DNA of 64,000 nt from assembly GCA_020852955.1 (NCBI GenBank), contig JADYZW010000047.1, forward strand, positions 24,436-88,435, read 5' to 3'. The translations under genes were made by a program, and so were the position numbers. The notes beneath the pieces were generated by a model. That model worked only from the letters and a program-made list of their open reading frames with translations. It was not told the DNA's origin and made no database searches. Below are positions 9,130-42,123 of the stretch, one piece after another (position 1 is the first letter of the stretch; every line of letters starts with the position of its first letter). The stretch is from Deltaproteobacteria bacterium. GTDB taxonomy: Bacteria > Desulfobacterota > Binatia > UTPRO1.

Positions 9130-9151
9130 GGCGGAGGAGACGGGCCGCGCG

Positions 9152-9219: not shown

Positions 9220-9225
9220 ACGCGC

Positions 9226-10978: not shown

Positions 10979-11003
10979 GGGAGCCTCCTTCGCTGCCGGA
11001 AAT

Positions 11004-17788: not shown

Positions 17789-17916
17789 CTCGATTCCTCC
17801 TCCTGGGTGATTGGTTCGGCCGGGGCCTCCCGGCGCTCTTCCTATGTGCCCCGCGAGCGCTCGACAGTCCAATCGAACGTTTTGAACTTCCGATCGCTCC
17901 CGGTTATCAGACGGAG
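17789..17916. promoter_or_regulatory. Divergent ahpC/oxyR control region
   Basis: This 128-bp gap is AT-richer than its surroundings and contains the imperfect dyad atcgaa-N10-ttccgat (about 17870-17895). Divergent ahpC-oxyR regions classically carry OxyR operators. No consensus match was verified. Confidence 0.3.
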
Positions 17917-19692: not shown

Positions 19693-19733
19693 CGGCCGGG
19701 CGACGGCCGCACGGCCGAGAAAGGCAGTCGCGC

Positions 19734-21141
<1,408 letters not shown>

Positions 21142-21167
<26 letters not shown>

Positions 21168-22143
21168 CATCGGCGGCACCAACTCGCGCCTCGCGCTCTA
21201 CCAGACTGGAGCGGACGGGCTGACGCTCGTCCGCGGCGCGACGTTCCCGAGCCGCGACCACGCCGGCCTCGAGGAGGTGATCGCCCGCTTCCTCGCCGAA
21301 GCCTCGGCGCCGCCCGTCGCCGCCGCCGCGTTCGGCGTCGCGGGGCCGGTGGTCGACGACGCCGTCGTCGCCACCAACCTCCCGTGGCACATCCGGAGCG
21401 CGGCGCTGCGCGCGCGCCTCGGCACGCCCCTCGTGCGGCTGCTCAACGACCTCGAGGCGACGGCCCACGGCGCGCTCGCGCTCGCGCCGGAGAAGCTCCT
21501 CGCGCTGAACGCCGGGGTCGCCCGGCCGGGCAATCGCGCCGTAATCGCCGCGGGCACGGGCCTCGGCCAGGCGCTCCTCTTCTGGGACGGCGCGCGCCAC
21601 GTACCGGTCGCGACCGAGGGCGGCCACGCTGACTTCGCGCCGCGCGACGAGGTCGAGCACGACCTGCTCCGCTGGCTCGAGCGCAAGTACGATGGCCACG
21701 TCTCCTACGAGCGTGCGGTCTCGGGGCACGGGCTCGCCAACATCTTCGCGTTCCTGGACGAGCACTGCCGGATGCCGGTCGCCGACGAAACGCGCCGTCG
21801 CCTCCAGCACGAGGACCCGGCGGCCGTGATCGGCGAGCTCGGCGTCGCCGGCGCGTGCGGCACCGCCGTCGCGGCGGTCGAACGCTTCGTCTCGATCTAC
21901 GGCGCGCAGGCCGGAAACCTCGCGCTCACCGTCATGGCAACGAGCGGCGTCTACGTCGGCGGCGGCATCGTCAACAAGCTGCTGTCGGCCATGACGGGCG
22001 GCGCCTTCATGCGCGCCTTCGTCGCCAAGGGACGCTACGAACGGCTCGTGCGCGAGATCCCGGTGTGGATCATCCGCGAGCCGAACGCCGGGCTGTACGG
22101 CGCGGCGCACGTCGCCGCGGCGCTCCTGCACGCCCGAGCGTGA
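21142..22143 (+). CDS. glk: Glucokinase
   Basis: It has the MTTHVLAGDIGGTNSRLAL ATP-binding N-terminus and a ROK-less Glk family layout. It overlaps the gnd 3' end by 26 nt. Confidence 0.85.
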
Positions 22144-22456
22144 CGCGGCGACGGCGACGGAAACGCGGGGAATCGAACGAGACAGTGCCGGCGCAGAGGT
22201 TCCCGATGAACGGGGACGCGGCGCTGGCGAATGCCGCCCATCTCGATGACGGGCGTTCCCAGTGCTAGTGTTCTGGCCGAGTCGATGCGTCAACAGCGGC
22301 ACGACGCGCCTTCTCTCACCGGTGGATCGACATGACGCGCGCTATCGGACGTTCGCCTCTCTCCTGGCGTTTGCCACGGCGTCCGGGCTCGGATCGCAAG
22401 GAATGTCTCGAGTGGCCTGATCCGCTGCAGTCAACCGAGCGATGGGGAGACTCACC

Positions 22457-24001: not shown

Positions 24002-24037
24002 CCGCGCCCACCCGTTGCGAAACATGAGGAGAAGATC

Positions 24038-24391
24038 GTGGACAAGCACATGTACCCCGAGGCATCGATCGAACTGCACCGCCAGCGCCAGGCGCTCGCA
24101 CCCGAAATCGGGGCCGCGTTCAAGGCGTTCAGCAACGCGGTGTTCGCCGACGGCGCGCTGTCGGCGAAGACGAAGGATCTGATCGCGGTCGCCGTCGCCC
24201 ACGTCACGCAGTGCCCGTATTGCATCCGCGGCCACACCGCGAGCGCGTTGCGCAGGGGCGCGACGCAGCAGGAGATCATGGAGGCCATCTGGGTCGCCGC
24301 CGAGATGCGCGCCGGCGGGGCGTACGCGCATTCGAACCTGGCGCTCGACGCGATGAACCAGTTCGCGGCGAAGACGACCGGCGCCGACTGA
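24038..24391 (+). CDS. Carboxymuconolactone decarboxylase / AhpD-like alkylhydroperoxidase family protein
   Basis: 117 aa with the core motif [14 protein letters not shown] (CxxC-containing AhpD-type helix). Confidence 0.8.
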
Positions 24392-24577: not shown

Positions 24578-26053
24578 TCAGAAGCGGAAGATTGCCTGCA
24601 TCCTGGCGAGCAGGCGGCGCGCCCTGCCCTCGTTGCTTTCCGTCGCCACGCTCTGGCCGCGGCGCTCGCGGAGCTCGCTCTGCCGGGTCGCCAGAATGCG
24701 GCTCACCGCGGCCGCGACGCTCGGCCGGGTCTTGAAGAGGGCCTCGAACCCGGCCCGCGCGACGATCAGGAGCTCCGCGTCGCCCCTGGCGCGGACCGTC
24801 GCCGAGCGCGCCTCTCCCGTGAGGAGCGCCATCTCTCCGAAGAACGCCGGCGCGCGGAGATCGGCGACGTGGGTCTCGTGGCCAGCGGCGCCCCGCGCGA
24901 CGACCTCCACGGTTCCCCGCCGCAGCACGAAGAAGGCGTCACCGGCATCGCCCTCGCGACAGATGACCTCGTCCCGGCCGAACGCGGCCTCCCGGACGTC
25001 CGGCCGCAGCATGCCGAGCGCCGCGTCGTCGAGCTCCGCCAGGAAGTCGACCTGCCGGAGGGCCGCGAGGCGCTGCTCCTGGGCGCGCGCGTCCGGGTCC
25101 CGCTGCGGCGCCGCTTCGTGCAGGTAGACGTTCCGGATCGGGAACGGAATCTCCATGTCGTGGCGGCGAAGCGCGTACCAGAGCCTGCTCATGATCGCGT
25201 CGCGGACCGCGGGCTGACGCGTGTAGTCGCGGATCCAGAACCGGATCCGATACTTGATCGCAGAGTCGCCGTAGTCCACCACCTCCGCCGTCGCCGGCGG
25301 CGTCGCGACGACGTCGGGCACGCCGCGCAGCACCTCGACGATGACCTCCTTCACCTCGTTCGGCGGAATCGCGTACGCGACGCCGACGAAGAGCTCGTCG
25401 CCGATGGCCTCGCCCCGGAAGTTGCGTACGACCTCGCGCGCGAGGAACGCGTTCGGGACGTCGAGGATCTCGAGGTTGCGGGTGACGATCGACGTCGAGC
25501 GCCACCCGATGCCCTGCACCCGGCCGACGTTGCCACCGAAGCCGATCCAGTCGCCCGGCTCGAAGGGCTTCTGCATCTGCAGCGACAGGCCGCTGAAGAC
25601 GTTGCCGAGCGTCTCCTGGAGCGCGAGGCCGATCACCGCGGTCACGATCGCGGAGGTCGTGAGGAGGCCGGAGACGTCGACGTCCACCGAGTGCAGCACC
25701 GCGAGGATGACCACGGCGTAGACCAGGAGCGTCGCGAGGTCGCGGAAGATCGTCGAGAAGTGCGCCTGGCGGCGGCGCATGACGAGGTCGGCGGTCACGG
25801 CGATGCCGCGCACGACCGCGAACGACACGGCGGCGATCGCCAGCACGAACGCGACGTTGGCCGGCCGCGACGCCAGCCACGGCATGACGGCCTCGACGAC
25901 GGTCGCGGCGACGAGGCACCAGAGCGCGCCCCCGAACCGCCGGAAGGCCGGCTGATCCCGCCCGAGCCACCACCCCCCCACCAGGATCAGAGCTCCCGCG
26001 AGCCACAGGGCGGATGTCACGAGCGGTGAGCTGAGCGTCGCAGCGTCCATCAC
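24578..26053 (-). CDS. MscS-family mechanosensitive channel with C-terminal cyclic-nucleotide-binding domain
   Basis: N-terminal TM helices are followed by an MscS beta-domain (FEPGDWIGFGGNVGRVQGIGWRSTSIVTRNLEILDVPN). The C-terminal CNB domain reads FFVLRRGTVEV...FFGEMALLTGEARSATVRA. Confidence 0.85.
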   Translation of the reverse strand: MMDAATLSSPLVTSALWLAGALILVGGWWLGRDQPAFRRFGGALWCLVAATVVEAVMPWLASRPANVAFVLAIAAVSFAVVRGIAVTADLVMRRRQAHFSTIFRDLATLLVYAVVILAVLHSVDVDVSGLLTTSAIVTAVIGLALQETLGNVFSGLSLQMQKPFEPGDWIGFGGNVGRVQGIGWRSTSIVTRNLEILDVPNAFLAREVVRNFRGEAIGDELFVGVAYAIPPNEVKEVIVEVLRGVPDVVATPPATAEVVDYGDSAIKYRIRFWIRDYTRQPAVRDAIMSRLWYALRRHDMEIPFPIRNVYLHEAAPQRDPDARAQEQRLAALRQVDFLAELDDAALGMLRPDVREAAFGRDEVICREGDAGDAFFVLRRGTVEVVARGAAGHETHVADLRAPAFFGEMALLTGEARSATVRARGDAELLIVARAGFEALFKTRPSVAAAVSRILATRQSELRERRGQSVATESNEGRARRLLARMQAIFRF

Positions 26054-26137
26054 GCCTGTCGGGTCGACGGCGCGGCACTATGCAGAAGGCGCCGCGCGCC
26101 TGTCAAATCATCCGCCCGCGTGCTAGCCCTGCGGACC

Positions 26138-27019
26138 ATGGCGGACGCGCCGATCACCGTCATCTTCGCCGACATCAGCGGCAGCACCATGCTCTGCGCG
26201 GTGCGGGGCGACGAGACCGCCTACAAGCTGGTCTCGACCTGCCTGAGCACGCTCGAAGCCGAGGTCGAGCGCTTCAACGGCCGCGTGATCAAGCGGGTCG
26301 GCGACGCCATCCTCGCCATCTTCGACGCTGCCGAGCCGGCGGTGCACGCGGCGCACGCGATGCAGGTCGCGCTTGAGGCCCCCGGCAGCGAGGTCCACGC
26401 CGAGGGCGTCCGCGTCCGGGTCGGCATCGCGACCGGCACAGCCGTCCTCGACGCGGGCGACATCTACGGCGACGTCGTCAACGTCGCCGCCCGACTCACC
26501 TCGCTCGCCGGCGCGGACGAGGTGTTCATGGCCGGCGAGACCTACGAAGGGATCCCGGCGTCGATGAAGGACAACGTCCGCGTCATCGACCAGCTCGCGC
26601 TCCGCGGCCGTCCCGACTGGGTGCTCGTCTACCAGTACCTCTGGAAGCAGGAAGGCGCGACGGTCAGCACGACCGTCCGCCCGCGCGGCTACACGGCGGC
26701 GCTCGAGGTCGCCTACCGCGGCGAGAAGTACGCCCTCGGCCCGTCGCGTCCGAAGCTCACGGTCGGCCGCGATCCCGACAACGACATCAGCATCGACGAG
26801 ACGGTCGTTTCGCGCCATCACTGCGAGGTGGTGCTGCGCGGCGACAAGTTCCTGCTGGTCGATCGCAGCACGAACGGCACCTGGGTGCTGACCGACGGCG
26901 GCGACACGTTCCGCGTGACCCGCGAGGAGATCACCCTCGCCGGCAGCGGCCGAATCCTGCCGGGACGTCAGAATCTGGAACCCCTGCGCTATAGAGTCGG
27001 GCCGCAAACCCCGGCGTGA
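26138..27019 (+). CDS. Class III adenylate/guanylate cyclase fused to an FHA domain
   Basis: The cyclase core is ITVIFADISGST...RVIKRVGDAILAIFD...VRVGIATG. The C-terminal FHA is LTVGRDPDNDISIDETVVSRHHCEVVLRGDKFLLVDRSTNGTWV. The start could instead be GTG 26120. Confidence 0.85.
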   Translation: MADAPITVIFADISGSTMLCAVRGDETAYKLVSTCLSTLEAEVERFNGRVIKRVGDAILAIFDAAEPAVHAAHAMQVALEAPGSEVHAEGVRVRVGIATGTAVLDAGDIYGDVVNVAARLTSLAGADEVFMAGETYEGIPASMKDNVRVIDQLALRGRPDWVLVYQYLWKQEGATVSTTVRPRGYTAALEVAYRGEKYALGPSRPKLTVGRDPDNDISIDETVVSRHHCEVVLRGDKFLLVDRSTNGTWVLTDGGDTFRVTREEITLAGSGRILPGRQNLEPLRYRVGPQTPA

Positions 27020-27094
27020 TCCCGGCCGCGTCACGCCCGCTTCGCGAACCCGCGTTGCGCGAACGTGGGTCGATATGGGACAACGGTGGAGTTC

Positions 27095-27799
27095 ATGGTG
27101 GTCGTGGGTGACGTGCTGTCGGATCGCGGGCTCCGCCGCGAGCTGAACGAGGACGCGTACGCGTACGAGCCCGCGCTCGATCTCTTCCTGGTCGCGGACG
27201 GCATGGGCGGCCACGCCGCGGGCGAGATCGCGAGCCGCACGGCCGCCGAGACGATCACGACCAAGCTCCAGGAGCTCCTGGCCGACGACGATCTGACCCC
27301 GTTCCGCGACGCCGACGGCAAGCCCTGCGTCGGAGCCCGCCGGCTGGTGATCGCGGTCGAATGCGCCAACGACGCCATCTTCCGGACGGCCGCGAGCAAC
27401 CCGAGCCAGCGCGGCATGGGAACCACGGTCGCCGCCCTGCACTTCGCCGACGGGTTCGCGAACCTCTGCCACGTCGGCGACAGCCGCATCTACCGCATCC
27501 GCAACGGCGCCATCGAGCGCCTCACGGAGGACCACGCGATCGCGGCGAACGTCCTCTCCCGCGCGCTCGGCGCCGAGCCGATGGTCGAGGCGAGCTGGCG
27601 GGTCGAGCCGGTTCGTCCCGGCGAGTGCTTCGTCCTCTGCACCGACGGCGTCCATGGCCAGGTGAAGGACGAGGAGATGCTCGAGATCGTCGAGCGCAAC
27701 GGCGACGATTTCGGCGCCGCCTGCCGCGAGCTGATCGCCCTCGCCAACGACCGCGGCGGCCGCGACAACTCGACCGCCCTCGTCGTCGGCGTCCGCTGA
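27095..27799 (+). CDS. PP2C-family Ser/Thr protein phosphatase
   Basis: Motifs SDRGLRRELNEDAY, FLVADGMGGHAAGEIAS, LCTDGV and GGRDNSTALVV. The start could instead be GTG 27065. Confidence 0.88.
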   Translation: MVVVGDVLSDRGLRRELNEDAYAYEPALDLFLVADGMGGHAAGEIASRTAAETITTKLQELLADDDLTPFRDADGKPCVGARRLVIAVECANDAIFRTAASNPSQRGMGTTVAALHFADGFANLCHVGDSRIYRIRNGAIERLTEDHAIAANVLSRALGAEPMVEASWRVEPVRPGECFVLCTDGVHGQVKDEEMLEIVERNGDDFGAACRELIALANDRGGRDNSTALVVGVR

Positions 27800-27823
27800 C
27801 CGGCGCCGTCCGCCCCGAACGAG

Positions 27824-29155
27824 CTACCTCGTGGGCGCCCGAGCGCGCGGCGCCTCTCTGCCGAAGATCGCCTCGATGGTGATCTCCTTGCGCCGAGCAT
27901 CCCGCAGCACATGGTCCTTGCTGGTGTCGTGGTACAGGTGGCAGAGCATGCAGCTCGTGCCCGCCGACCGCGTCTCGCCGTCGATGTGGCAGCGCTGGCA
28001 GACGTCCTTCATCGGGAGGTTCACGTCGGCGGTCTCGGCGCTCTCGCGCACGTCGGGATGGCAGTGCTCGCACTTCAGGAGGTCGTGCGCCCGGTGCGAG
28101 AACTCGCCCCGTACGAGCCAGCGCGTCGGGATCATGGTCGGCTCGATCTCGGGGAGATCCCCCGGCGCGTGCGTGCCCTCCTCGTCGTGGCACAAGAAAC
28201 AGTACTTGTTGGCGTCGAGGAGCGACGAGGCGCCGTCGCCGAGGTTCGGGTCGAGTGGCTGATAGAGCTTGGCCTCGGCCTTGGCGAGTGCGCTCTTCGG
28301 GTTGGTCGGGTCGATAAAGGCGGCCAGCGAGACCGAGGCGTCGAGCGGGTCGCGGCGGACGCGGCCCGGGAGGCCCGGATCGGTCGAGCCGAAGATGCCG
28401 TCGGGGTTGTTCACGGCCGCGAAGAGAAGCTTCGCCTTCAGATCCTCGCGCACGACGTCGGGCGCCTCGTGCACCGCCTCGACCGACGAGTCCGGACCGA
28501 GCCCCGACTGCGCATGGCACTTCTTGCAATGCCGCTCGAAATCGATCGGCAGCATCAGCGCGCCGTCCTTCGCGGGCACGTGGCACTCGACGCACGAGAG
28601 CGTGTCGTCGGGATCGATCTTGGTGCTCGACAGATGGATCTCGTGATCGAAGCGGATCGCGGCTTCGTCGCGACGCCCGGCGCGGAGCGCCCCGAACTCC
28701 GGGTGGTCGGCGAAGGTCCGGACCGAACGCCGGATCTCGGGCTGCTCGCGCGTCGACGCAAGCTCGCCGTGGCACTCGACGCAGCTCGCGTTCGCGACGG
28801 CGAGGAACACGCCGGTGGCTCGATGCTCGACGTGACACGCCGCGCAGTCCGGCGTCTCCACCTCGGACTTCGCGTGCGTACGGTCGGTATGACAGCCGAG
28901 ACACGCCTCGGTCGGAACCCCGGCGTACGCGGCATGGCAGGTTTCGCAGCGGTCGCCGAAGCTCGCGTGCCCCTGCGACACGGGTCCCGGCAGGTACTGG
29001 CGCTGCTTCGTGCCGGCGTGGAGCCCCCACCACGCGAGGCCGCCGATCGCGACGAACAGCACCCCCACGAGCCAGTACCAGCGCCGGAAGAAGTCGGGAC
29101 GCGGGAAGAGGTCGAAGCGGAGGCGTTTCGCGAGGTCTTTGCTGTTCCGGACCAC
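27824..29155 (-). CDS. Membrane-anchored decahaem c-type cytochrome (class III/c3-like)
   Basis: One N-terminal TM helix (WYWLVGVLFVAIGGLAWWGL) followed by ten CxxCH motifs: CETCH, CLGCH, CAACH, CVECH, CVECH, CKKCH, CFLCH, CEHCH, CQRCH, CMLCH. Confidence 0.85.
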   Translation of the reverse strand: MVRNSKDLAKRLRFDLFPRPDFFRRWYWLVGVLFVAIGGLAWWGLHAGTKQRQYLPGPVSQGHASFGDRCETCHAAYAGVPTEACLGCHTDRTHAKSEVETPDCAACHVEHRATGVFLAVANASCVECHGELASTREQPEIRRSVRTFADHPEFGALRAGRRDEAAIRFDHEIHLSSTKIDPDDTLSCVECHVPAKDGALMLPIDFERHCKKCHAQSGLGPDSSVEAVHEAPDVVREDLKAKLLFAAVNNPDGIFGSTDPGLPGRVRRDPLDASVSLAAFIDPTNPKSALAKAEAKLYQPLDPNLGDGASSLLDANKYCFLCHDEEGTHAPGDLPEIEPTMIPTRWLVRGEFSHRAHDLLKCEHCHPDVRESAETADVNLPMKDVCQRCHIDGETRSAGTSCMLCHLYHDTSKDHVLRDARRKEITIEAIFGREAPRARAPTR

Positions 29156-29167
29156 CGGTACACCGAC

Positions 29168-30076
29168 TCAGTACTTGAGCGCCATGACGATGTGGAACGC
29201 CGCGAGCACGAAGAGCGCGAACGAGAGCGGCGCGTGGACGAAGAGCCAACCGTGCAGCACGTCGTGCAGGCGGCGCTGCACCGCGAGCTGGTGTGACTCC
29301 TCGCAGATGGCCGCGAGGCGCTCGAGCTTCGGGGCCCACTCCCCGGGCGCCCGCACGACGAGGGTGCGGATGTCGGGCGGGTTGGTGCGCGTGCGGGCGT
29401 CGCGCAGGAGGTACGGGCGGATCTCGCGTAGGTAAACGTCCCTGAGCAGCGCGGCCTCGGGCACGGGATCAGTCACCGGGGGCTTCCGCGCCACGGCCTT
29501 CCAGTTGCCCGGGCGCGTCTGCAGGGCGGCCTGCTCGGCGGCGAGCCGGGCCTGCTCCTCGGCGGCCTCGGGGACGACGCCGGCCAGGCTCGCGACGAGC
29601 TCGTACGCGTCGGTCGCGAGCCCCTCGCGCACGTGGTCCATCTGACCGACGAGCGTCTCGAGCGGCACGCGCTCGGTCATGATCCCCGGCAGGTACTGCT
29701 GCAGCGCCAGCCCGAAGAGGCCGCTCACCGTAACGACCGCGAACAGCGCCATGAGCGTCGTCGTGAGGGCGCCGCCGAGCCGGAGGCCGGCGTGGAAGAG
29801 GATCAGCGGCACGGCGAGGAGGCCGAGCCAGACGTGCATCTGCATCCAGACGCGCGCCGGCCCGATCCGCCACGTGCGAACCTTCTTCCGCCCCGCGAGG
29901 AGGCCGGCGAGCAGCATCGCGAGCGTCCCGAGGACGCCGTACGCGAGCCCGGGCCAGCTGCCTCCCGACGCACCGTACGGGCTCGCCGCTACGTAGAGGC
30001 GGTAGCTCACCGCGCCGGCGATCGTCGCGACGATCGTGAACGCGAGCCAGCCGCGGTGGTCCCTGTTGAGCCTCAT
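29168..30076 (-). CDS. Five-TM membrane protein with two H-x13-H pairs (putative dihaem b-type cytochrome)
   Basis: Start re-called at ATG 30076, overlapping the upstream stop (ATGA). TM3 reads HVWLGLLAVPLILFH and TM5 reads HAPLSFALFVLAAFH. A helical soluble insert of about 140 aa lies between TM4 and TM5. Confidence 0.7.
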   Translation of the reverse strand: MRLNRDHRGWLAFTIVATIAGAVSYRLYVAASPYGASGGSWPGLAYGVLGTLAMLLAGLLAGRKKVRTWRIGPARVWMQMHVWLGLLAVPLILFHAGLRLGGALTTTLMALFAVVTVSGLFGLALQQYLPGIMTERVPLETLVGQMDHVREGLATDAYELVASLAGVVPEAAEEQARLAAEQAALQTRPGNWKAVARKPPVTDPVPEAALLRDVYLREIRPYLLRDARTRTNPPDIRTLVVRAPGEWAPKLERLAAICEESHQLAVQRRLHDVLHGWLFVHAPLSFALFVLAAFHIVMALKY

Positions 30077-31941
30077 CGCAGATCGGAGGGCGCGAGAAAC
30101 TCGCCAGGAGCGACCCGGATCGCGGCGTCGTGGGGACACGCGTAGACGCAGTTCGGGCCGTCGTAGCCGGCGCAGAGGTCGCAGACCGTGGCGCGCAGCG
30201 ACACGCCCTCGCGCGGGGGCGGCGGCCGCTTCAGCTCGGAGAGCTCGACCATGTTGATGTTCCCGAAGGGACACTGGTTGGCGCAGCGCTCGCAGCCGAT
30301 GCACCAGTCCTCGATCTTGATCTCGAGCGAATCCTCGCGGCGGATCGAGCCGACCGGGCAGCCGACCATGCACTTCGGGTCGGTGCAGGAGCGGCAGGCC
30401 ATGGTGACGAGGTACCGGCCGATGCGCGGCCCGTCGCGGGTAAAGCGCGCCACCCCGTCGTGGGCGTCGGCGCAGGCGCGCACGCACTCGTCGCAGCGCG
30501 TACAGCGTTCGAGATCTATGAGCAGGACGTTCTGCGAGTTGTAGAGGTTGAGCTCGACGGTCTCCTCGAGCATCGCCTGCTCGTTCGCCGAGCGGCTGAA
30601 GGCGGCCGTCTCGAGCGCGCGCCCAGCCCGCGTCGCGGCCGCCAGCGCCGCGGCATTGGCCTCCGCGAGGCGGCCGAGCGCCTCGGCCGGGACGCGGACC
30701 ACCTCGAAGCTGTCGAGTCCGGAGGCGCGCGCGACCCGCACCGCCGCAGGCGCGTCGACCGCGGTGACGTCCTCGCGTCCGATCTCGAAGACGTACTCGA
30801 CGACGCCGATGTGATCGCCCTCGGCGAGGATGGCCTCGCGGATGCGCTCGCCGTTCAGAAGCGTGTGATTCGCGCTGTCGAGATCGACGATCCAGAGCTC
30901 GCCGTCCCGCTCCTCGACGCGGCAATGGCGACGGCCGATCGCACGGCTCTCCTTCGGCACCAGCATGTCGCAGGACTCGCTGCGACCGATCGTGATGGGC
31001 TTGGTGAGCGCCAGCTCCCGGAAGAGAGTCGGGTGCGACGCGCAGCGCAGGACCAGCCTGGTCCGCGGACGCGCCGGCATGAGCGCCTCGAAGCCGAAGG
31101 CTCCGCCGCGACCGAGATAGGTGAAGACGAACTCCCCGCCGGCCTTCGTCTGCGACATCTTGATGGTGCCGGCACGCACGAGATACAGCGCGTCGGCCGG
31201 CGTGTCCTCCGCGTAGACGACGCCGTCCGAAACCTCGTCGGAGTCGGGCGTGAGGAGCGTGCTCACCGCCGCGAGCGCCTCGATCTGCGAGGCGCTCAGC
31301 TCCGCCAGGAGCGCGCTCTGATGCAGGGTGCTGCGGATGGCGTGCGCCTCGTAGGCCTCGTCGATGGCGTCGCCGGCGCCGCGAATCGTGTCGAGCACCG
31401 AGCGCAGCATCTCGAGCGCGACGCACCGGGTCTCGGCGCGCACCGTCGCCTCGCGCGGGTAGAAATTCACGCAGGTATCGAGCCCGAAGATCTCGCCGGG
31501 ACGGATCGCCGCGGGCCCGAGGCGGCGGTCGTGCGCGAGCGTCGCGTAGCGGCTCACCTCGCCGACCTCGGGACGTCCGGGTGTCCGCTCGGCGCGCCGC
31601 GTACGGCGCCGGAAACCGTCCAAGATCCGGGCGAGCGAGCGCGGCGTACGTCCCTCGACGCTCTTCGCCTCGACCCGCTCGGGAAGGAACGCGGTCGCGG
31701 CGCCCTCGACGAGGAGAAACGCGGTCGAGCCGTAGGCGCCGGCCTCGCAGATGACCTCGCCGGGCTCGTACTCGCGCCGTACGACGGCCTTGATGCCGGG
31801 CTCGCCGGCGTCCGGCGCGGCCCCGAGCAGCGTCGGCAGCTTCAGCTTCGCGCGCTTGCTGCTCTTGAAGAAGTCGAGCTCGGCGACCTCTTCGAGTGAG
31901 AGCCACTGGCCGTCGAGGCCATCGGCGTGTCGTCGTGTCAC
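30073..31941 (-). CDS. Cytoplasmic polyferredoxin (NrfC/DmsB-like 4x[4Fe-4S]) fused to two cNMP-binding-like domains and an FHA domain
   Basis: Start re-called at GTG 31941 (gagggtgag RBS), because the upstream part of the track ORF overlaps hldD in another frame. Domains are CNB1 (GEIFGLD...REATVRAETRCVALEM), CNB2 (LYLVRAGTIKM...GGAFGFEAL) and FHA (ITIGRSESCDMLV...RRHCRVEERDGELWIVDLDSANHTLLNG). The Cys clusters are CTRCDECVRAC, CRSCTDPKCMVGCP, CIGCERCANQCP and CDLC...CVYACP. No signal or Tat motif. Confidence 0.8.
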   Translation of the reverse strand: MTRRHADGLDGQWLSLEEVAELDFFKSSKRAKLKLPTLLGAAPDAGEPGIKAVVRREYEPGEVICEAGAYGSTAFLLVEGAATAFLPERVEAKSVEGRTPRSLARILDGFRRRTRRAERTPGRPEVGEVSRYATLAHDRRLGPAAIRPGEIFGLDTCVNFYPREATVRAETRCVALEMLRSVLDTIRGAGDAIDEAYEAHAIRSTLHQSALLAELSASQIEALAAVSTLLTPDSDEVSDGVVYAEDTPADALYLVRAGTIKMSQTKAGGEFVFTYLGRGGAFGFEALMPARPRTRLVLRCASHPTLFRELALTKPITIGRSESCDMLVPKESRAIGRRHCRVEERDGELWIVDLDSANHTLLNGERIREAILAEGDHIGVVEYVFEIGREDVTAVDAPAAVRVARASGLDSFEVVRVPAEALGRLAEANAAALAAATRAGRALETAAFSRSANEQAMLEETVELNLYNSQNVLLIDLERCTRCDECVRACADAHDGVARFTRDGPRIGRYLVTMACRSCTDPKCMVGCPVGSIRREDSLEIKIEDWCIGCERCANQCPFGNINMVELSELKRPPPPREGVSLRATVCDLCAGYDGPNCVYACPHDAAIRVAPGEFLAPSDLR

Positions 31942-32036
31942 CCGCTCACCCTCGCTTCCCAGCCGGACCGAAAAGCCGGTCGCTCTTAGCAGGAAGGCGC
32001 GAGCCAGGGCAACGATTCCGTCGGGGCGGGGCGGCG

Positions 32037-33011
32037 CTACGCCTCCGCCAGCAAGCGCGCGACGTAGCGCCGCGCGCCTTCCTCGAGCGTCGTGAACGGC
32101 GTCGTCCACCCGGCGCCGCGCACGCGGTCCATCCTCGCTTCGGTCGCGTACTGGTAGCGCGCGCGCAGGCTCTCGGGCATCTCGATGAAGCGGATCCTCG
32201 GGGGAACGCCGAGCGCGGCAAACGTCGCGCGGGCGAGGTCGAGGAAGCTGCGGCTCGCGCCACTGCCGAGATTGAAGATGCCGCGCGCGAGCGGGCGCTC
32301 GAGCGCGAACCAGAGAACCGCGACGACGTCCTCGACATGGACGAAGTCGCGCCGCTGCTCGCCGTCGGCGACGTCCGGCCGATAGCTCTTGAAGAGCCGC
32401 ACCTCGCCGTCGGCGCGGATCTGGTCGTACGCGTGCAGGATGACGCTCGCCATCTTGCCCTTGTGGCGTTCGCCGAAGCCGTAGACGTTGAAGAACTTGA
32501 AGCCGCTCCAGGCCGGCGGCGTCCGACCGGCGCCCTCCTCGCCGAGCGCCCACAGATCGAACCGCTGCTTCGACTCGCCGTAGGGGTTGAGAGGACGGAG
32601 CTTCGGGATCGAGGCCTCGTCGTCGTCGTACCCGTTCGCTCCGTCGCCGTAGGTGGCGGCGCTGCTCGCGTAGACGAAGGGCACGCGGTGCGCGCTCGCC
32701 CAACGCCACAGCCGTTGCGAGTACTCGAGGTTGACCCGCCGGAGATGGTCGAGGTCCATCTCGGTCGTGTCGGTGCACGCGCCGAGGTGGACGATGCCGG
32801 CGAGCCCGGGCGCCTCCGCCGCGAGCCATCCGTCGAGCCCGTCGACGTCCACCCTGGCGCCGAAGTCGAGCCCCCGGTGCTCGGGGCGGTCCACGAAGCT
32901 CGCGAGGCGATCCACCGAAACGAGCGGCACGCCGCGCCGATTGCACGACTCGACGAAGCGCGCGCCGATGAAGCCGGCGGCGCCGGTGACGAGAAGCGCG
33001 CGCGCCGCCAT
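32037..33011 (-). CDS. hldD: ADP-L-glycero-D-manno-heptose 6-epimerase-like NAD-dependent epimerase
   Basis: It has a VTGAAGFIG Rossmann motif, the YASSAATYG catalytic region, and FKFFNVYGFGERHKGKMASVILH typical of HldD/RfaD. Confidence 0.72.
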   Translation of the reverse strand: MAARALLVTGAAGFIGARFVESCNRRGVPLVSVDRLASFVDRPEHRGLDFGARVDVDGLDGWLAAEAPGLAGIVHLGACTDTTEMDLDHLRRVNLEYSQRLWRWASAHRVPFVYASSAATYGDGANGYDDDEASIPKLRPLNPYGESKQRFDLWALGEEGAGRTPPAWSGFKFFNVYGFGERHKGKMASVILHAYDQIRADGEVRLFKSYRPDVADGEQRRDFVHVEDVVAVLWFALERPLARGIFNLGSGASRSFLDLARATFAALGVPPRIRFIEMPESLRARYQYATEARMDRVRGAGWTTPFTTLEEGARRYVARLLAEA

Positions 33012-33018
33012 GGCCGCC

Positions 33019-33999
33019 TCAGTCGCCGAGGAGATACGCGAAGATCAACGGCGCCACGATCGTCGCGTCCGACTGGATCATGAACTTCGGCGTCGCGACC
33101 TCGAGCTTGCCCCAGGTGATCTTCTCGTTCGGCACGGCGCCGGAATAGCCGCCGAAGCTCGTCACCGCATCCGAGATCTGCGCGAAGTATCCCCAGTACG
33201 GCACGTCGTCGCGCTGGAGATCCTGGATGATGGTCGGCACGGCGCAGATCGCGAAGTCGCCTGCGATGCCGCCGCCGACCTGGAAGAAGCCGACGCTCGG
33301 CGTCCCGTCGTCCTTGCCGCAGCTCTCGAGGTACCACTCGATGAGATGCTGCATCTGCTCGGTGCCGCTCTTCACGCACTGGTGATGCGGCAGCGCACCG
33401 CGCAGCACGCCGGCCGCGAACATGTTGCCGGTCGTGCTGTCCTCCCAGCCGGGCGAGTACACCGGAATCCCCTTCTCCCACGCGGCGAGGAGCCAGCTGT
33501 GCTCCGCGGGGATCTGGTAGAACCGCTCCATCTCGCCGTCGCGGAAAAGATCGTGGAGGAACTCGGCCTCGAACTTCCGCTCGCCGCGCTCGCAGGCGAG
33601 TTTCCAGCGCTCGAGGAGCCGACTCTCCAGGTGGCGCATGACGGTCTCGGGGATGCAGGTGTCCGTCACGCGGTTGAAGCCGCGCGCGTAGAGATCGGCC
33701 TCGTCCTGAGCGGAGAGCGCGCGCCAGTCCGGAATGATCTCGTACTCCTCGTAGGCCAGGAGGTTGAAGAGATCCTCTTCGAGATTGGCCCCGGTGCAGC
33801 TGATGGCGTGCACCTTGCCCGCCCGGATCATCCGGCTCAAGATCTGGCCGAGCTTGGCGGTGCTCATCGCGCCGGCGAGCGCCACCAGCATCTTGCCGCC
33901 CGCCGCGAGGTGCGCCTCGTAGGCCTTCGCGGCGGCGACCGTCTCCCGGCTGTTGAAGTGGAGGAAGTGCTTCTCCATGAACGCACGCACGGTGCTCAT
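33019..33999 (-). CDS. Deoxyhypusine synthase-like protein (DHS/homospermidine-synthase family)
   Basis: LVALAGAMSTAKLGQILSRMIRAGKVHAISCTGANLEEDLFNL and the remaining sequence match the bacterial DHS-like family. Confidence 0.82.
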   Translation of the reverse strand: MSTVRAFMEKHFLHFNSRETVAAAKAYEAHLAAGGKMLVALAGAMSTAKLGQILSRMIRAGKVHAISCTGANLEEDLFNLLAYEEYEIIPDWRALSAQDEADLYARGFNRVTDTCIPETVMRHLESRLLERWKLACERGERKFEAEFLHDLFRDGEMERFYQIPAEHSWLLAAWEKGIPVYSPGWEDSTTGNMFAAGVLRGALPHHQCVKSGTEQMQHLIEWYLESCGKDDGTPSVGFFQVGGGIAGDFAICAVPTIIQDLQRDDVPYWGYFAQISDAVTSFGGYSGAVPNEKITWGKLEVATPKFMIQSDATIVAPLIFAYLLGD

Positions 34000-34095
34000 G
34001 GCCCCGCTTGTAGGTGATATTCCGATGCTGCACCAGTCGGCGCGCCGGTTGCAGCTGGCGCGCGGCGCGTGTTACTCGGCGCACCGGGGGTGGGG

Positions 34096-35421
34096 ATGAT
34101 GCGCGCGACGTTCCTCCTGATCGCCTCGATCGGCTTCGGGATGCTGACGGCGACGCCCGTGGCGGCCGGCCCCGGGTTCCTCGGCGACGGGCGGTGCGGC
34201 AATCCCACGTGCCACGGCGCCGGACTCCCGAACCGCGAGAAGCCCGACCCCAAGTGGCGCCCGTGGAAGTCGGCGCGGACGCAGTGGATCAACACCAACA
34301 TCGACCGCCACTCCCGCGCCTATCGCACCCTCGAGACCGACGAGGGGAGGACGATCGCGCGCTACATGGGTATCGAGGCGACTCAGAGCGACAAGTGCCT
34401 CGCCTGCCATGCCCCCGCGGCGACGGCCGCGCCCGGCGGTCGTTACAAGAAGAGCGACGGCGTCACCTGCGAGCACTGTCACGGCCCCGCCGAGCTCTGG
34501 CTCGAGCCGCACTCGCAGAAGGATTGGCCGCAAACGCGCCGCCAGTACGTCTCGAAAGGCTTCTACGACAACGACGACTATGTGCTGCGCGCCCGTAACT
34601 GCGCGCGCTGTCACGTCGCGATCGACCATGAGATCGTGGCCGGCGGCCACCCGCCCCTCCAGTTCGAGCTGGTCGCGTACGCACAGATCATGAAGCACTG
34701 GGACGACCAGGACGAGCTGCCGGCGGGTGCGTTCAGCGTCGACCCCACGATCTGGGCGCTCGGGCAGGTCACCGGCCTCCGCGACGCGCTTCGCATGCTC
34801 TCGGAACGCGCCGACGGCGCCAACTACCAGTCGTTCGACCAGTTCCCCCACTTCGCCGACCGCAACTGCTACACCTGTCATCACAAACTCGTGGACGACG
34901 CGCTCCGCCAGGCGCGCGGCCACTACCTGATGGTCGACGCCGTGCTCTCGGGCGTCGCCACCGGCAAGCGCGACGAGCTCGCCGGCCTCTGGAACGCCGT
35001 CGCCGCCGCCGTCCCGTCGAGCCCGCAGGCCGCCAAGCAGAAGGCCGACGCCATGATCGGCTGGCTCGGAGCGCTGGAAGGGCGGCTCGATGCGATCGAC
35101 CAGAGTGCGACGCGCCGCATGCTCGCCCGCGTGACCGCGGGCGGCGACCGCCTGAAGCTCGCCGAGCGCTTCTCCTTCAGCCGCTCGAAGAGCTCCAACT
35201 GCGTCGACATCGACAACCCGAGCACCCCCTGGTGGTGGACGACCGGCGGCCCAGAGCAGAGCTATCTCGCGATCCGCGCCCTCTGCCGCCCCGCCTGGGG
35301 CGACCGCTGCGACGTCGTCAAGAGCGACATGCGCACGATGCTCGATGCGATCGACCGCTTCGCCTACAAGCCGGACCAGTTCGCAGCGAGCCTCGGAGCG
35401 GTGGGCGCGAAGCTGAAGTGA
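34096..35421 (+). CDS. Periplasmic multihaem cytochrome c (cytochrome c554-like family)
   Basis: Start re-called at ATG 34096 (MMRATFLLIASIGFGMLTATPVAAG). It has four CxxCH motifs (CLACH, CEHCH, CARCH, CYTCH) plus one CX4CH (CGNPTCH). Confidence 0.75.
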   Translation: MMRATFLLIASIGFGMLTATPVAAGPGFLGDGRCGNPTCHGAGLPNREKPDPKWRPWKSARTQWINTNIDRHSRAYRTLETDEGRTIARYMGIEATQSDKCLACHAPAATAAPGGRYKKSDGVTCEHCHGPAELWLEPHSQKDWPQTRRQYVSKGFYDNDDYVLRARNCARCHVAIDHEIVAGGHPPLQFELVAYAQIMKHWDDQDELPAGAFSVDPTIWALGQVTGLRDALRMLSERADGANYQSFDQFPHFADRNCYTCHHKLVDDALRQARGHYLMVDAVLSGVATGKRDELAGLWNAVAAAVPSSPQAAKQKADAMIGWLGALEGRLDAIDQSATRRMLARVTAGGDRLKLAERFSFSRSKSSNCVDIDNPSTPWWWTTGGPEQSYLAIRALCRPAWGDRCDVVKSDMRTMLDAIDRFAYKPDQFAASLGAVGAKLK

Positions 35422-35560: not shown

Positions 35561-37915
35561 TCACGGAACCTTGATCACCGTCTCGCGCTGGATCAGGGCA
35601 CCCGGCCCGGCGAAGCCGGCCGCGATGTCGATCGCGCCGTTGTTCTGCGGCACGCAGTAGACCGCGGCCGTGTCCCTCGTGGGGGTGCCCGGCACGCCCT
35701 CGCGGATGATGCCGCTGTTCACGAAGCACGCACGCGGCCTGAGCTGGCAGGTGTCGCCCGCCGTACAGTAGGGGCACCCGGCCGATGGCTGGCAATCCGC
35801 GGCGGTGTTGCAGCCGCGGATCGGCGTCAGCACGCAGAACTTGTCGGGCGGGCCGTCCGTGCACTTGCCCTCTTGATTGGAGTCGGTGTCGGACGGATCG
35901 GCGCGGCAGTCCGCCGGATGGCAGAAACCCCCGCCGGTGCAATCGGCGTTGGTGTCGCACGGCGCGGCGTCGTTGTCGCCGCCGACGCACGCCTCGAAGC
36001 AGGCATTCGGCCGCTTCTGCCCCGAGCAGAAGCATTGGCCGTTGCACGTGCCTCCCGGGCACTCCGACGGCACCGTGCACGACCGGCCTTCGCTCGTACC
36101 GCCGACGCACGTCTTGTTGCCGAACCCGGCTTCGGTACAGTTGAAGTTGGGGACCAGGGTGACGGTCCCGGTCGTGCGCGGGTTCGCGTTGATGTCGAGC
36201 CCGGTGCCGTTCGGATTGGTGATGAAGTCGGTGTCGGGCGGACAGTCGACGCTCGTCAGGCCGAAGAACGGCAGCTCGCCCCCGAATGGCGGCGTACGCC
36301 GGCACGCTTTGTCCCTGCGGGTGCCGTCGCTGCACACGGCCTCCGTGACGCACGGGCCCATGCCGGGGGCGCAGTCGGTGTCGTCGTCGCAGCGCTGGCG
36401 ATCGACGCCGCAGAAGTTCCCGCATACGGGACAGGGCTTGTCCTGCGTGATCGCGAGGCGCGTGATCGCGCGCTGACGGACCTTCACGGCGGACGTGCCC
36501 GCCGTCAGGTTGACGGTGCCGACGACGTCCTCGCTGAAGAAGCTGACGTTGCAGACCGCGATGCCGCCGGCCGCCTGCGCGACGGGAGACGCATGGAAGG
36601 TCGTCGCGCAGAAGTCGCCCGGAGCGTTGCAGACCGGATCGTTCACGTTCCTGAGGTCGCACTTCTTGTTGATGTCCATGAAGCAGTGCGGACCCGTCGC
36701 GGTGCGCTCCTTGCGACAGGTTCCCTGACCGAGGCCGGCGCAGATCGAATCCGAGGTGGTCCCGGACGGTGCGTTCTCGGCGACGCTGCACGGCGAGTGC
36801 GGCGCGAGCGAGCAGCTCGGGCCGGCATTGCAGAGGCCGCTCATGTCGCAGTCGTAGAGATCGACGAGGAAGCCGCCCTCCTCCACGACGTCGCCGTCGG
36901 CGCTGACCCCCGTCCAGCCGTTGTCGACATCGGCGTTGGCGTCTTCGATGACCACCATGCGAGGCTTGGTCTTGCAGAGGCACGCGAAGAAGCCGTCCGG
37001 TGTGGTGGCGGTGCCGCACTGGCCCGGACACGCCGAATCGTCCGGCCCGTCACACTCCTCGTTCAGGTTGTTCACGACGTTGTCGCCGCAGAGGCCGCCG
37101 CGCGTGGCGTACTCGTAGTCGACGAGATCGGGGGGCACGATGATCTCCGGGCCGTCCGTCAACACGGTCGTCGCGTCGATCAGGCACGTCGCCGCGCCGG
37201 CGGCGTCCGTCTGATCGGGCGTGCACACCTTGAGGGTCGAAACCTGGGGGTTCGTGCACTTCTTCTCGAGGGCGGCCGTGAGCTTGTCCTTGCACTTCTG
37301 GATGGCGGCGCTCGTCTTCGGGTCGTTGGTGGCGCAGTAGTCGGGCGGCACGCCGAGCGGCTTGCCCTTGAGGATCGCGTCGCGGCACTTCGAGACGTTC
37401 TTGAGGACGCAGCTCGAAAACCCGGTCGTCTGCTTCGCGACCTCGGTCTGGCACTTGAGGTCGTCGCCGAGCGGCCCCGTCACGGTCGCGTCGTAGGCGA
37501 GCGCCATCGCCGCGGTCACGAACGCGTCGTGGGTATCCTTCATGCAGAGCTGGAGGTCGGCGGTCGTGAAGCCGTCGCCGGGATCCGGGTCCGTACAGGG
37601 GCCCGGGAATCCCATCAGGTCGAAGTCGGTCGGCGTGAGCGCGCAGGATTTCGCGATGGAGCTCGAGAGCTTTCCGTCGATCTTCGCGAGGGCCCCAGCG
37701 TCCGGCGTCGGACAGGTGCCGTCCTTCAGGTGGGTGTTCTTGCACTTCTGCAGCAGCTTCAGCTTCCCGATCGTGTACTTCTGGGAAGCCTTCGCGCTCG
37801 CGAGCAGGCACTTCAGACGATTCTTGCTGAGCTGCGCGTCGGCGTGCGACGCGGTCAGCATGACCGCGGTCAGTCCGGCGACGATGAAGGACGCTCGGGT
37901 TCGGCCGATCGTCAT
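35561..37915 (-). CDS. Large secreted cysteine-rich protein (about 60 Cys) of unknown function
   Basis: Signal peptide MTIGRTRASFIVAGLTAVMLTASHADA. My hand count gives about 62 Cys in 784 aa and no CxxCH. It contains one Myxococcus-type Cys repeat (CGDNVVNNLNEECDGPDDSACPGQCG). Confidence 0.7.
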   Translation of the reverse strand: MTIGRTRASFIVAGLTAVMLTASHADAQLSKNRLKCLLASAKASQKYTIGKLKLLQKCKNTHLKDGTCPTPDAGALAKIDGKLSSSIAKSCALTPTDFDLMGFPGPCTDPDPGDGFTTADLQLCMKDTHDAFVTAAMALAYDATVTGPLGDDLKCQTEVAKQTTGFSSCVLKNVSKCRDAILKGKPLGVPPDYCATNDPKTSAAIQKCKDKLTAALEKKCTNPQVSTLKVCTPDQTDAAGAATCLIDATTVLTDGPEIIVPPDLVDYEYATRGGLCGDNVVNNLNEECDGPDDSACPGQCGTATTPDGFFACLCKTKPRMVVIEDANADVDNGWTGVSADGDVVEEGGFLVDLYDCDMSGLCNAGPSCSLAPHSPCSVAENAPSGTTSDSICAGLGQGTCRKERTATGPHCFMDINKKCDLRNVNDPVCNAPGDFCATTFHASPVAQAAGGIAVCNVSFFSEDVVGTVNLTAGTSAVKVRQRAITRLAITQDKPCPVCGNFCGVDRQRCDDDTDCAPGMGPCVTEAVCSDGTRRDKACRRTPPFGGELPFFGLTSVDCPPDTDFITNPNGTGLDINANPRTTGTVTLVPNFNCTEAGFGNKTCVGGTSEGRSCTVPSECPGGTCNGQCFCSGQKRPNACFEACVGGDNDAAPCDTNADCTGGGFCHPADCRADPSDTDSNQEGKCTDGPPDKFCVLTPIRGCNTAADCQPSAGCPYCTAGDTCQLRPRACFVNSGIIREGVPGTPTRDTAAVYCVPQNNGAIDIAAGFAGPGALIQRETVIKVP

Positions 37916-42082: not shown

Positions 42083-42123
42083 CGTCCACCCTCCCATGCC
42101 GCGCCTGCCCCGCATGGGCTTCA

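Follow-up and report, generated by a model that had tools for sequence, protein, structure and literature searches.

The locus described here lies in a 64,000-nucleotide stretch of genomic DNA, referred to throughout as the window, from a Deltaproteobacteria bacterium placed in the Binatia (GCA_020852955.1, contig JADYZW010000047.1, positions 24,436 to 88,435 of the forward strand; G+C content about 70%). Its subject is a trio of adjacent minus-strand genes. Gene 1 (30073–31941) encodes a cytoplasmic regulatory iron-sulfur (Fe-S) subunit of 622 amino acids (aa), gene 2 (29168–30076) a 302-aa membrane subunit with five transmembrane (TM) helices, and gene 3 (27824–29155) a 443-aa decahaem cytochrome c, periplasmic and held by a single N-terminal TM anchor. 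An earlier note on this DNA had read the trio as an electron wire from cytoplasm to periplasm, gated directly by cyclic nucleotides and/or a phosphoprotein.

All three open reading frames (ORFs) were recovered by a gene call based on third-position GC content (GC3), with coding-like GC3 values of 0.91–0.96, and the tight packing described in the earlier note was borne out. The end of gene 1 overlaps the start of gene 2 by the ATGA at 30076–30073 (CTG CGA TGA overlapping ATG AGG), and a 12-nt spacer at 29167–29156 separates gene 2 from the GTG start of gene 3 at 29155. Gene 1 also starts with GTG, at 31941, and the preceding epimerase gene ends at 32037. Because of this start, the epimerase end and the existence of full-length homologues sharing the N-terminal region, the regulatory domains and the ferredoxin of gene 1 belong to one protein. 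A start further downstream, which the earlier note had named as a way in which the regulatory domains might fall into a separate gene, is ruled out by the same observations together with the continuity of the ORF; the homologues begin in the same start region. A scan of 27000–34200 for promoters and terminators found none.

Domain architecture of the gene 1 protein

The gene 1 protein was analysed with Pfam, a 56-sequence alignment, an AlphaFold2 (AF2) model built from this alignment (predicted local distance difference test score, pLDDT, 77; predicted template modelling score, pTM, 0.70) and Foldseek. Pfam returned cNMP_binding (7e-19, in three stretches), FHA (2.6e-14, aa 316–378) and several Fer4 families (aa 512–606). 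The order is a first cyclic-nucleotide-binding (CNB) domain, CNB-A, a second, CNB-B, with the FHA domain inserted, and a four-cluster ferredoxin. CNB-A (about aa 45–190; 31372–31809, on the minus strand like all parts of the gene; Pfam, alignment and model) has the cassette FGLD...PREAT and carries a helical insertion of about 50 aa that is found family-wide. The N-terminal part of CNB-B (about aa 215–290; 31072–31299; alignment and model) ends in the cassette helix FGFEAL, and its C-terminal part (about aa 400–463; 30553–30744; alignment and model) comprises RVARA with the cassette Arg402, beta7/8 and a long C-helix. Between them lies the FHA domain (about aa 294–392; 30766–31062; Pfam, Foldseek and alignment), inserted in the CNB-B cassette. 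The ferredoxin domain (about aa 470–613; 30103–30534; PDB sequence search, NCBIfam and cysteine conservation) is of the HycB/HydN type and has four [4Fe-4S] cluster motifs. The two CNB segments, the FHA core and the four cysteine clusters that had been read off earlier were thus recovered by Pfam and by the invariance of 16 cysteines, and the reservation that CNB and FHA might find no significant match falls away at these scores.

When submitted to Foldseek against the PDB, the model retrieved the tandem CNB domains of PKA-R and PKG (1e-11 to 1e-8), with matches spanning both CNBs, and its FHA part matched the FHA domain of Rv0020c (3poa_A; TMt 0.87, root mean square deviation 2.2). Like PKA-R and PKG, gene 1 has two tandem CNBs, each ending in a C-helix; unlike them, it continues into an electron-transfer domain, and its CNB-B cassette accommodates an entire further domain.

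The position of the insert was established by aligning the window protein with FHA-less relatives from other genomes. Across the CNB-B cassette these relatives read '...FFGELSLLGG--GVRTATCTALDH...', and the window protein reads '...AFGFEALMPARPRT[about 110 aa FHA]PAAVRVARASGLDS...'. The roughly 110 inserted residues therefore interrupt the phosphate-binding cassette precisely where 'FGE..L' gives way to 'R-[ST]-A-T', leaving the cassette helix on one side and the cassette Arg on the other. In the AF2 model, CNB-B strands run to residue 276, FHA strands occupy 294–391, CNB-B strands resume at 405–418 and the C-helix covers 419–448. Alignment and model thus agree on the nesting of FHA in the phosphate-binding region of the second CNB, which the earlier note had suspected.

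In all 65 of the 65 sequences from outside the window lineage the cassettes are canonical in both CNBs (FGE[ML]...PRSAT in CNB-A, FGE...R[T/x]AT in CNB-B), a sequence pattern that argues for real cyclic-nucleotide binding in the family. Those of the window lineage (18 sequences) read FG[ILV]D...PREAT and FG[LF]E...RxATA, with Arg and Ala kept in both. In the FHA domain, G319, R320, H339 and N358 are conserved in the 56-sequence alignment, and the altered or kept positions D155, E285, R163, R402, G319, R320 and H339 are invariant.

The CNB-B cassette site is also occupied in other lineages. Loci are numbered here within a synteny sample of the 80 best loci and six more found by protein identity. 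A degenerate FHA-like insert, not recognised by Pfam in the Bryobacterales, is present at this site in Bryobacterales and Acidimicrobiia, whose gene 1 also has an extra canonical FHA domain at the C-terminus (Pfam 1e-18 in L019). In the gene 1 homologue at L018:9935-11848 a PilZ domain (PF07238, 4e-13) is inserted at the same site; such PilZ-bearing homologues form three distinct clusters, down to 62% identity (proteins P0390-P0392).

All 16 ferredoxin cysteines are invariant in the 56 gene 1 homologues (49–89% identity), and so are the motifs that hold them: CTRCDECVRAC, CRSCTDPKCMVGCP, CIGCERCANQCP and CDLC-x7-CVYACP, of the CX2CX2CX3C / CX2CX4CX3CP type. In a PDB sequence search, residues 473–613 gave alignments to cytoplasmic four-cluster ferredoxins that take in each of the four motifs (E 1e-12 to 7e-8). 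These are HycB3 of the hydrogen-dependent CO2 reductase (7qv7_A; 1.1e-12), the Fe-S subunit of an aldehyde oxidoreductase (8c0z_C), a 4Fe-4S ferredoxin Fe-S binding-domain protein (6cz7_B) and formate hydrogenlyase subunit 2, HycB (7z0s_B). The NCBIfam HydN and AegA matches to this domain stayed below cut-off.

The N-terminus of gene 1, 'MTRRHADGLDGQW...', has no hydrophobic stretch after 'TRRH' and hence no Tat or Sec signal, in keeping with the earlier note. Tat export from the 'TRRH' was rejected for this reason and because the cytoplasmic CNB and FHA domains precede the ferredoxin, and a cytoplasmic location of the Fe-S subunit is supported. The earlier assignment to the NrfC/DmsB/HybA type holds for the spacing of the cysteine motifs; it fails in that the closest proteins are cytoplasmic HycB/HydN proteins, that a Tat signal is lacking and that gene 2 is not NrfD-like. 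HycB, HydN and AegA are cytoplasmic like the gene 1 domain and can be aligned with it over the four motifs, but they wire soluble or membrane-bound catalytic subunits and have no CNB/FHA module. To our knowledge none of them docks on a dihaem five-TM protein.

The membrane and cytochrome subunits and the distribution of the trio

Gene 2 was assigned from its AF2 model (pLDDT 82), its conserved histidines and weak Pfam matches. The model has TM helices at residues 5–31, 41–64, 74–96, 103–133 and within 245–301; TM4 and TM5 are linked by a helical domain of about 110 aa (134–270). According to the positive-inside rule, applied to sequence and model, this domain and the loop after TM2 are probably cytoplasmic. 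H81-x13-H95 on TM3 and H281-x13-H295 on TM5 are conserved in 81–82 of the 83 sequences, from several phyla, so that the earlier description as a five-TM protein with two H-x13-H pairs stands. The model places TM3 and TM5 in parallel, with H81/H281 and H95/H295 predicted near opposite faces of the membrane, and the four histidines are presumed to ligate two stacked b haems. Two further histidines just before TM5, H271 and H275, are conserved in 78–79 of 83 homologues; they may bind a third cofactor or touch the Fe-S subunit.

In a profile search of 1.84 billion representatives, gene 2 had 3657 relatives, counted as representatives at 50% identity; 554 of these reached E <= 1e-30, and loop lengths varied. 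Among the matches listed, the close homologues are nameless or called 'hypothetical'. Pfam matches remained below threshold (Ferric_reduct 0.012, 16.1 bits against a cut-off of 28; DUF4405 0.025). PDB sequence searches with gene 2, gene 3 and a 577-aa protein of the cluster (see below) gave nothing meaningful, and NCBIfam had no model at cut-off for any protein of the cluster.

There is nevertheless a likeness to NOX, FRE and MsrQ, in which two parallel helices, each with histidines about 13 residues apart, hold the two b haems that carry NAD(P)H-derived electrons across the membrane. Gene 2 differs from these proteins in having five rather than six TM helices and a Ferric_reduct match below cut-off, and a Foldseek search of its model against the PDB retrieved neither NOX nor STEAP nor MsrQ. 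Moreover, the NOX/FRE/MsrQ proteins have a fused FNR donor and O2, Fe(III) or MsrP as acceptor, whereas in the window the donor would be an Fe-S protein and the acceptor a multihaem cytochrome c. Electron flow of the NOX/FRE/MsrQ type is electrogenic, and NOX enzymes are tightly regulated.

Gene 3 has 10 CXXCH motifs, a number found exactly in 68 of 76 homologues, and Pfam matches to Cytochrome_C7, Cytochrom_CIII and Paired_CXXCH. A QrcA-like stretch is weak (NCBIfam 5e-10, below cut-off). With its N-terminal TM helix, the protein agrees with the earlier reading of a singly anchored decahaem cytochrome c.

The layout of a cytoplasmic Fe-S protein, a membrane b cytochrome and a periplasmic multihaem cytochrome c is shared with the Tmc, Hmc, Dsr and Qrc complexes. 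However, searches with Pfam and NCBIfam found no CCG/HdrD-like, NarI/HdrE-like or NrfD-like subunit in the trio, and matches to HmcB and DsrO were far below cut-off. Assignment to NrfCD, Hmc, Tmc, Dsr or Qrc was rejected, since their defining subunits and a Tat-exported ferredoxin are absent.

Relatives of gene 1 were found in at least 556 species (scan of one genome per species). Most of them, in Acidobacteriota and Planctomycetota, are without FHA, and the FHA-less family amounts to thousands of proteins. More than 100 clusters at 90% identity have the exact CNB-FHA-Fer4 architecture (620–650 aa), and their names go no further than 'cyclic nucleotide-binding domain-containing protein'. The earlier statement that no four-cluster ferredoxin subunit with CNB or FHA fusions was known therefore has to be given up. 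A protein 100% identical to gene 1 is present in a 'Deltaproteobacteria' metagenome-assembled genome (MAG), and the nearest species representatives are Polyangiaceae MAGs.

Genes 1, 2 and 3 are contiguous in essentially every locus where the contig allows, in Myxococcota, Binatia, Acidobacteriota, Planctomycetota, Verrucomicrobiota and Actinomycetota, which bears out the expected co-conservation of the three genes across phyla in the loci inspected. The exception is formed by a few Planctomycetota including Kuenenia, in which genes 2 and 3 lie about 5 kb upstream. In the MAG of Candidatus Kuenenia stuttgartiensis (L078, about 4900–11500) the order is gene 2, gene 3, a NuoEF-like gene and a gene for a NuoG-like/CNB/four-cluster ferredoxin protein; this module could serve inward flow from anammoxosome cytochromes.

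Comparable gene combinations are mentioned in two preprints, and no other mention was found in the literature searched. The ptdABCDEFG operon (bioRxiv 10.1101/2023.11.21.568154, 2024) was reported from marine UBA11136 Alphaproteobacteria, Nitrospirales and Planctomycetes as of completely unknown function, with a proposed role in extracellular electron transfer. Its products include an FAD/NAD(P) oxidoreductase (PtdC), a tetrahaem protein (PtdD), a CNB plus 4Fe-4S protein (PtdE), a ferric-reductase-like TM protein (PtdF) and a decahaem protein (PtdG). Compared by description only, PtdD, E, F and G are of the same gene types in the same order as in the window, and in both clusters an NAD(P)H-type flavoprotein and a porin-plus-multihaem pair, putative in the window, are nearby. 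As reported, the ptd set has two 4Fe-4S clusters and lacks FHA, its PtdC resembles a flavohaemoprotein and a pentahaem protein bears a beta-sandwich, whereas the window has four clusters, an FHA nested in CNB-B, a decahaem LVIVD propeller and a Pyr_redox_2-FHA-Fer2 flavoprotein.

The second report concerns Ferrigenium straubiae (bioRxiv 10.64898/2026.01.22.701106) and describes a nonahaem cytochrome with one TM helix, a five-TM protein and a [4Fe-4S] protein. Again compared by description, this trio resembles that of the window in its three-part layout, a five-TM protein without InterPro match and an FHA domain on the cytoplasmic side. It differs in that the FHA is on the N-terminus of the cytochrome, that there are nine haems, that CNB domains are not mentioned and that the authors favour an inward or quinone-linked role. 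A literature match on LVIVD and multihaem proteins in Tenderiales proved unrelated. In the literature searched, the nested FHA, the PilZ alternative, the four-cluster count and the Nuo-fused majority form are undescribed. The module as a whole is widespread and has been named, though not characterised, and the window trio represents a variant of it that is specific to its lineage. The earlier note had allowed that the architecture might prove common and already be tied to a known enzyme complex; common it is, and the operon that it matches by description, ptd, is one of unknown function.

Input modules, signalling genes and the wider cluster

The trio is part of a wider system that the earlier note had not recognised, with alternative NAD(P)H inputs and a set of periplasmic and putative outer-membrane cytochromes. 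The gene 1 homologues of Acidobacteriota and of most Planctomycetota, about 720 aa long, have a NuoG-like N-terminus (Fer2_4, NADH-G_4Fe-4S_3, Fer4). These forms are preceded by a NuoE/NuoF fusion (2Fe-2S_thioredx, Complex1_51K, NADH_4Fe-4S; e.g. in L058). The combination of an upstream NuoE/F gene and a NuoG-like fusion was seen in about 50 loci, including Kuenenia, and indicates that, on the cytoplasmic side, the wire ends in an NAD(P)H dehydrogenase module. NuoEF is absent where gene 1 has FHA, and several such loci carry a Pyr_redox_2-FHA-Fer2 protein adjacent instead. The corresponding protein of the window is an 806-aa flavoprotein with Pyr_redox_2, two FHA domains and a 2Fe-2S ferredoxin domain (46462–48882, minus strand; Pfam), which adjoins the trio in L002, L003, L004 and L016; it is the candidate NAD(P)H-oxidising donor in the window lineage. 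Three interchangeable input modules of the NAD(P)H type, counting the PtdC of the 2024 preprint, are the main argument for both direction and substrate. Pentose-phosphate genes are also near: 6PGL, 6PGD and glucokinase genes lie at 18964–22143 of the window, and G6PD lies beside the trio in two distant loci, L004 (9947–11473) and L006 (12208–13803). This oxidative pentose-phosphate neighbourhood hints at NADPH as the electron source.

Several genes around the trio belong to signalling families. A class III nucleotidyl cyclase fused to FHA is encoded at 26120–27019 on the plus strand (Pfam Guanylate_cyc 1e-16, FHA 1e-13), and such a gene is near the trio in L002, L006-L010, L015 and L020. A PP2C Ser/Thr phosphatase gene at 27065–27799 (plus strand; Pfam PP2C_2 2.5e-19) is convergent with gene 3, and PP2C occurs near the trio only in loci whose gene 1 has FHA. 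On the minus strand, 24578–26053 encodes an MscS-type channel with a canonical C-terminal CNB domain (Pfam); such a gene is a neighbour of the trio in the window lineage, among others in L007-L010, and directly follows gene 3 in L001 (12223–13722), a relative at 58% identity. Within 10 kb, PP2C and/or cyclase-FHA genes were found in 12 of the 23 loci with an inserted or extra gene 1 domain and in 0 of the 59 loci without one (Fisher 1.6e-8, uncorrected for phylogeny).

A second group of neighbours is secreted. At 34090–35421 on the plus strand lies the gene of a C554-like cytochrome with a signal peptide and four CXXCH motifs (Pfam Cytochrome_C554 4e-11, motifs and synteny), which in most relatives is directly upstream of gene 1 and divergently transcribed. 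A CX4CH motif (CGNPTCH) near the N-terminus of this protein is a possible fifth, unusual haem site. In the window the interval 32037–33999 between the C554-like gene and gene 1 holds a deoxyhypusine-synthase-like gene and an NAD-dependent epimerase gene; this arrangement was seen only in the Polyangiaceae-like lineage, and elsewhere the C554-like gene is directly divergent from gene 1.

Further away, on the minus strand, 38156–42124 encodes a secreted decahaem cytochrome of 1322 aa with LVIVD beta-propeller repeats (Pfam, CXXCH count and tblastn), co-conserved with the trio across phyla at 50–57% identity in a tblastn matrix. It is followed in coordinates by a secreted 577-aa protein (42124–43857, minus strand) with a signal peptide and the C-terminal end ...TEVVLVF, which is co-conserved with the 1322-aa cytochrome and whose Acidobacterial homologue in L058 has a CarboxypepD_reg N-terminus. 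An HbpS-like (DUF336) lipoprotein of 610 aa (44588–46420, minus strand; Pfam 1.4e-17, synteny) is likewise co-conserved with the cluster, so that the C554-like, 1322-aa, 577-aa and HbpS-like proteins all recur across phyla. At 43842–44543, on the same strand, is the gene of a 233-aa protein with a Pro/Thr-rich N-terminus, an FHA domain (Pfam 5.7e-12) and a C-terminal TM helix.

Other genes of the window were noted alongside. Haem biosynthesis and cytochrome c assembly genes occupy 48963–54190, on the same strand as and directly upstream of the Pyr_redox_2-FHA operon, and comprise glutamyl-tRNA reductase, porphobilinogen deaminase, a uroporphyrinogen-III synthase/tetrapyrrole methylase fusion, a sirohaem synthase fragment and Cytochrom_C_asm. 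A divergent AhpC peroxiredoxin/LysR pair (17225–18888) and a Rieske-Pyr_redox_2 fusion beside an AhpD-like (CMD) protein (22442–24391) are oxidative-stress-type genes that flank the cluster. A secreted, Cys-rich protein of 784 aa without Pfam match (35561–37915) was found mainly in the closest relatives L009 and L010 and weakly in L001.

A possible regulated conduit, its alternatives and its significance

According to our interpretation, which we hold with moderate confidence, the trio probably forms the inner-membrane core of a quinone-independent, regulated conduit from NAD(P)H to the periplasm or the cell exterior. The wire anatomy put forward in the earlier note, from Fe-S clusters through two presumed b haems to ten c haems, is supported by the cofactor ligands, the topology and the synteny. 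The HycB-type domain with its four [4Fe-4S] clusters would dock on the five-TM gene 2 protein, whose two b haems on TM3/TM5, stacked across the bilayer, would pass electrons to the membrane-anchored decahaem gene 3 protein. Flow would be outward, from NAD(P)H reducing power through the trio to the C554-like tetrahaem protein and on to the pair of putative barrel and decahaem propeller. The donor would be the Pyr_redox_2-FHA-2Fe-2S protein in the window lineage, and NuoE/F with the NuoG-like N-terminus of gene 1 in most other lineages.

Outward flow through the b haems would be electrogenic and would drain the membrane potential, so that the path should be switched. The tandem CNB domains stand directly before the ferredoxin, the CNB-B C-helix running straight into the ferredoxin domain in the gene 1 model, and in the Nuo-fused forms they stand between the input and output Fe-S modules. 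Ligand-driven hinge movement of CNB domains is established for PKA-R and Epac. If ligand binding moved the CNB-B hinge and C-helix in a corresponding way, the clusters of the chain would come within tunnelling distance of each other or be drawn apart beyond it. The FHA insertion and the neighbouring cyclase-FHA, PP2C and FHA proteins would then add phosphothreonine (pThr) signalling to the cyclic-nucleotide control, or partly replace it. The presence of FHA on both the presumed donor and gene 1, together with PP2C, suggests phosphorylation-dependent assembly or release.

A further step, which we offer tentatively and consider rather doubtful, is that the CNB-B cassette serves as an evolutionary docking site for a second receiver, be it FHA, degenerate FHA or PilZ, giving a composite switch for cyclic nucleotide monophosphates and pThr or cyclic di-GMP that gates an Fe-S wire from NAD(P)H to the exterior. 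The site would be occupied by FHA in Myxococcota and Binatia, by a degenerate FHA in Bryobacterales and Acidimicrobiia, and by PilZ in another lineage. No firmer is the accompanying idea that the wire might be physically made or broken in this way, with the quinone pool bypassed, in thousands of soil and sediment bacteria.

Several observations weigh against the conduit and its control as proposed. In both CNBs of the window lineage the cassette Glu has shifted by one residue, and in CNB-A the Ser after the Arg is replaced by Glu, so cyclic-nucleotide binding may be altered or lost there; direct gating by cAMP or cGMP, as put forward in the earlier note, is an unproven and, from these residues, weaker proposition for the window protein than for its relatives. 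The pThr-contacting Ser of the FHA domain is Gly336 in the window protein and most close relatives, with Ser in deeper branches. No Ser/Thr kinase was found among those of the window's genes that were scanned with Pfam, and the association of signalling genes with the domain insertions carries no phylogenetic correction. On the membrane side, haem b binding by gene 2 is presumed from its histidine pattern, the protein has no Pfam or NCBIfam match above threshold, and its model has no significant PDB neighbour (Foldseek, best E 0.49). For the 577-aa protein an outer-membrane beta-barrel fold is likely, as judged from the sequence. In the window 15 kb separate the candidate donor gene from the trio, and several window-lineage loci do not have it in their 8–10 kb flanks. 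Finally, the module occurs in an anammox bacterium and apparently also in an Fe(II) oxidiser for which inward flow has been suggested, the latter matched by description.

This last point leads to the alternative that fares best, although we regard it as unlikely: the same wire working in reverse, with electrons taken up from periplasmic or extracellular donors via the decahaem protein and passed through the b haems to the Fe-S clusters and then to NAD+ or ferredoxin, CNB and FHA controlling the uptake. The NuoEF-type flavoprotein modules of complex I are reversible in principle. Relatives are found in Kuenenia stuttgartiensis, which has very low-potential electrons in its periplasm equivalent, and the similar trio of the Fe(II) oxidiser Ferrigenium straubiae has been discussed as a possible inward route (bioRxiv 10.64898/2026.01.22.701106). 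However, electrons would have to move from the positive to the negative side against the membrane potential. With a donor such as Fe(II), thermodynamics would make NAD(P)+ reduction a steeply uphill reaction, and no device that could couple it is seen. The carriers are mostly Acidobacteriota, Planctomycetota and Myxococcota from soil, which have no evident low-potential donor in the periplasm, and the neighbouring pentose-phosphate genes generate NADPH.

The dense set of signalling genes around the trio (cyclase-FHA, PP2C, MscS-CNB, the FHA-TM protein and the FHA-bearing flavoprotein) could also be read the other way round. The haem chain would then inform the Fe-S clusters of redox conditions in the periplasm or outside the cell, the state of the clusters would alter what the CNB/FHA module binds, and CNB and FHA would be outputs to a circuit of cyclase-FHA, PP2C and MscS-CNB. 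HbpS-like proteins have been linked to redox sensing in Streptomyces; an HbpS-like lipoprotein is part of the cluster, and AhpC/LysR and AhpD-like genes are nearby. Ten c haems, two b haems, four clusters and, in most lineages, an NADH dehydrogenase module nevertheless go far beyond the needs of a sensor, and that all cofactor ligands are strictly conserved across phyla is in keeping with bulk electron flow. We therefore place such a redox sensor second among the alternatives and consider it improbable.

That the CNB and FHA domains of the window lineage are degenerate and only structural spacers or docking surfaces on a constitutive wire is the least probable reading, for although the cassette Glu is displaced in both CNBs with CNB-A Ser changed to Glu, the FHA Ser is Gly in most window-lineage sequences and the Bryobacterales carry a degenerate, Pfam-invisible FHA-like insert, the altered positions are themselves invariant, which suggests retuning rather than decay, the FHA-bearing forms co-occur with PP2C and cyclase-FHA, and the fact that FHA and PilZ were inserted independently at one cassette site speaks for selection on a regulatory function.

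Even if the regulated conduit from NAD(P)H should prove wrong, the analysis supplies a tentative functional label for more than 3600 clusters of 'hypothetical' five-TM proteins. Handles for its study are a defined insertion site, the existence of natural variants that have FHA, PilZ or nothing there, and three alternative NAD(P)H input modules. If it is right, a widespread and unannotated gene set would provide a direct route from NAD(P)H to periplasmic or extracellular cytochromes without quinones, its carriers being soil Acidobacteriota, Planctomycetota (including anammox bacteria), Myxococcota and Binatia. Second messengers and protein phosphorylation would control the wire itself, rather than its expression. 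We know of no other respiratory-type wire that is switched in this manner, so that the control would be of a new kind. There would be consequences for our view of how non-model soil bacteria get rid of reducing power, reduce minerals or humic substances, or produce extracellular reactive species.

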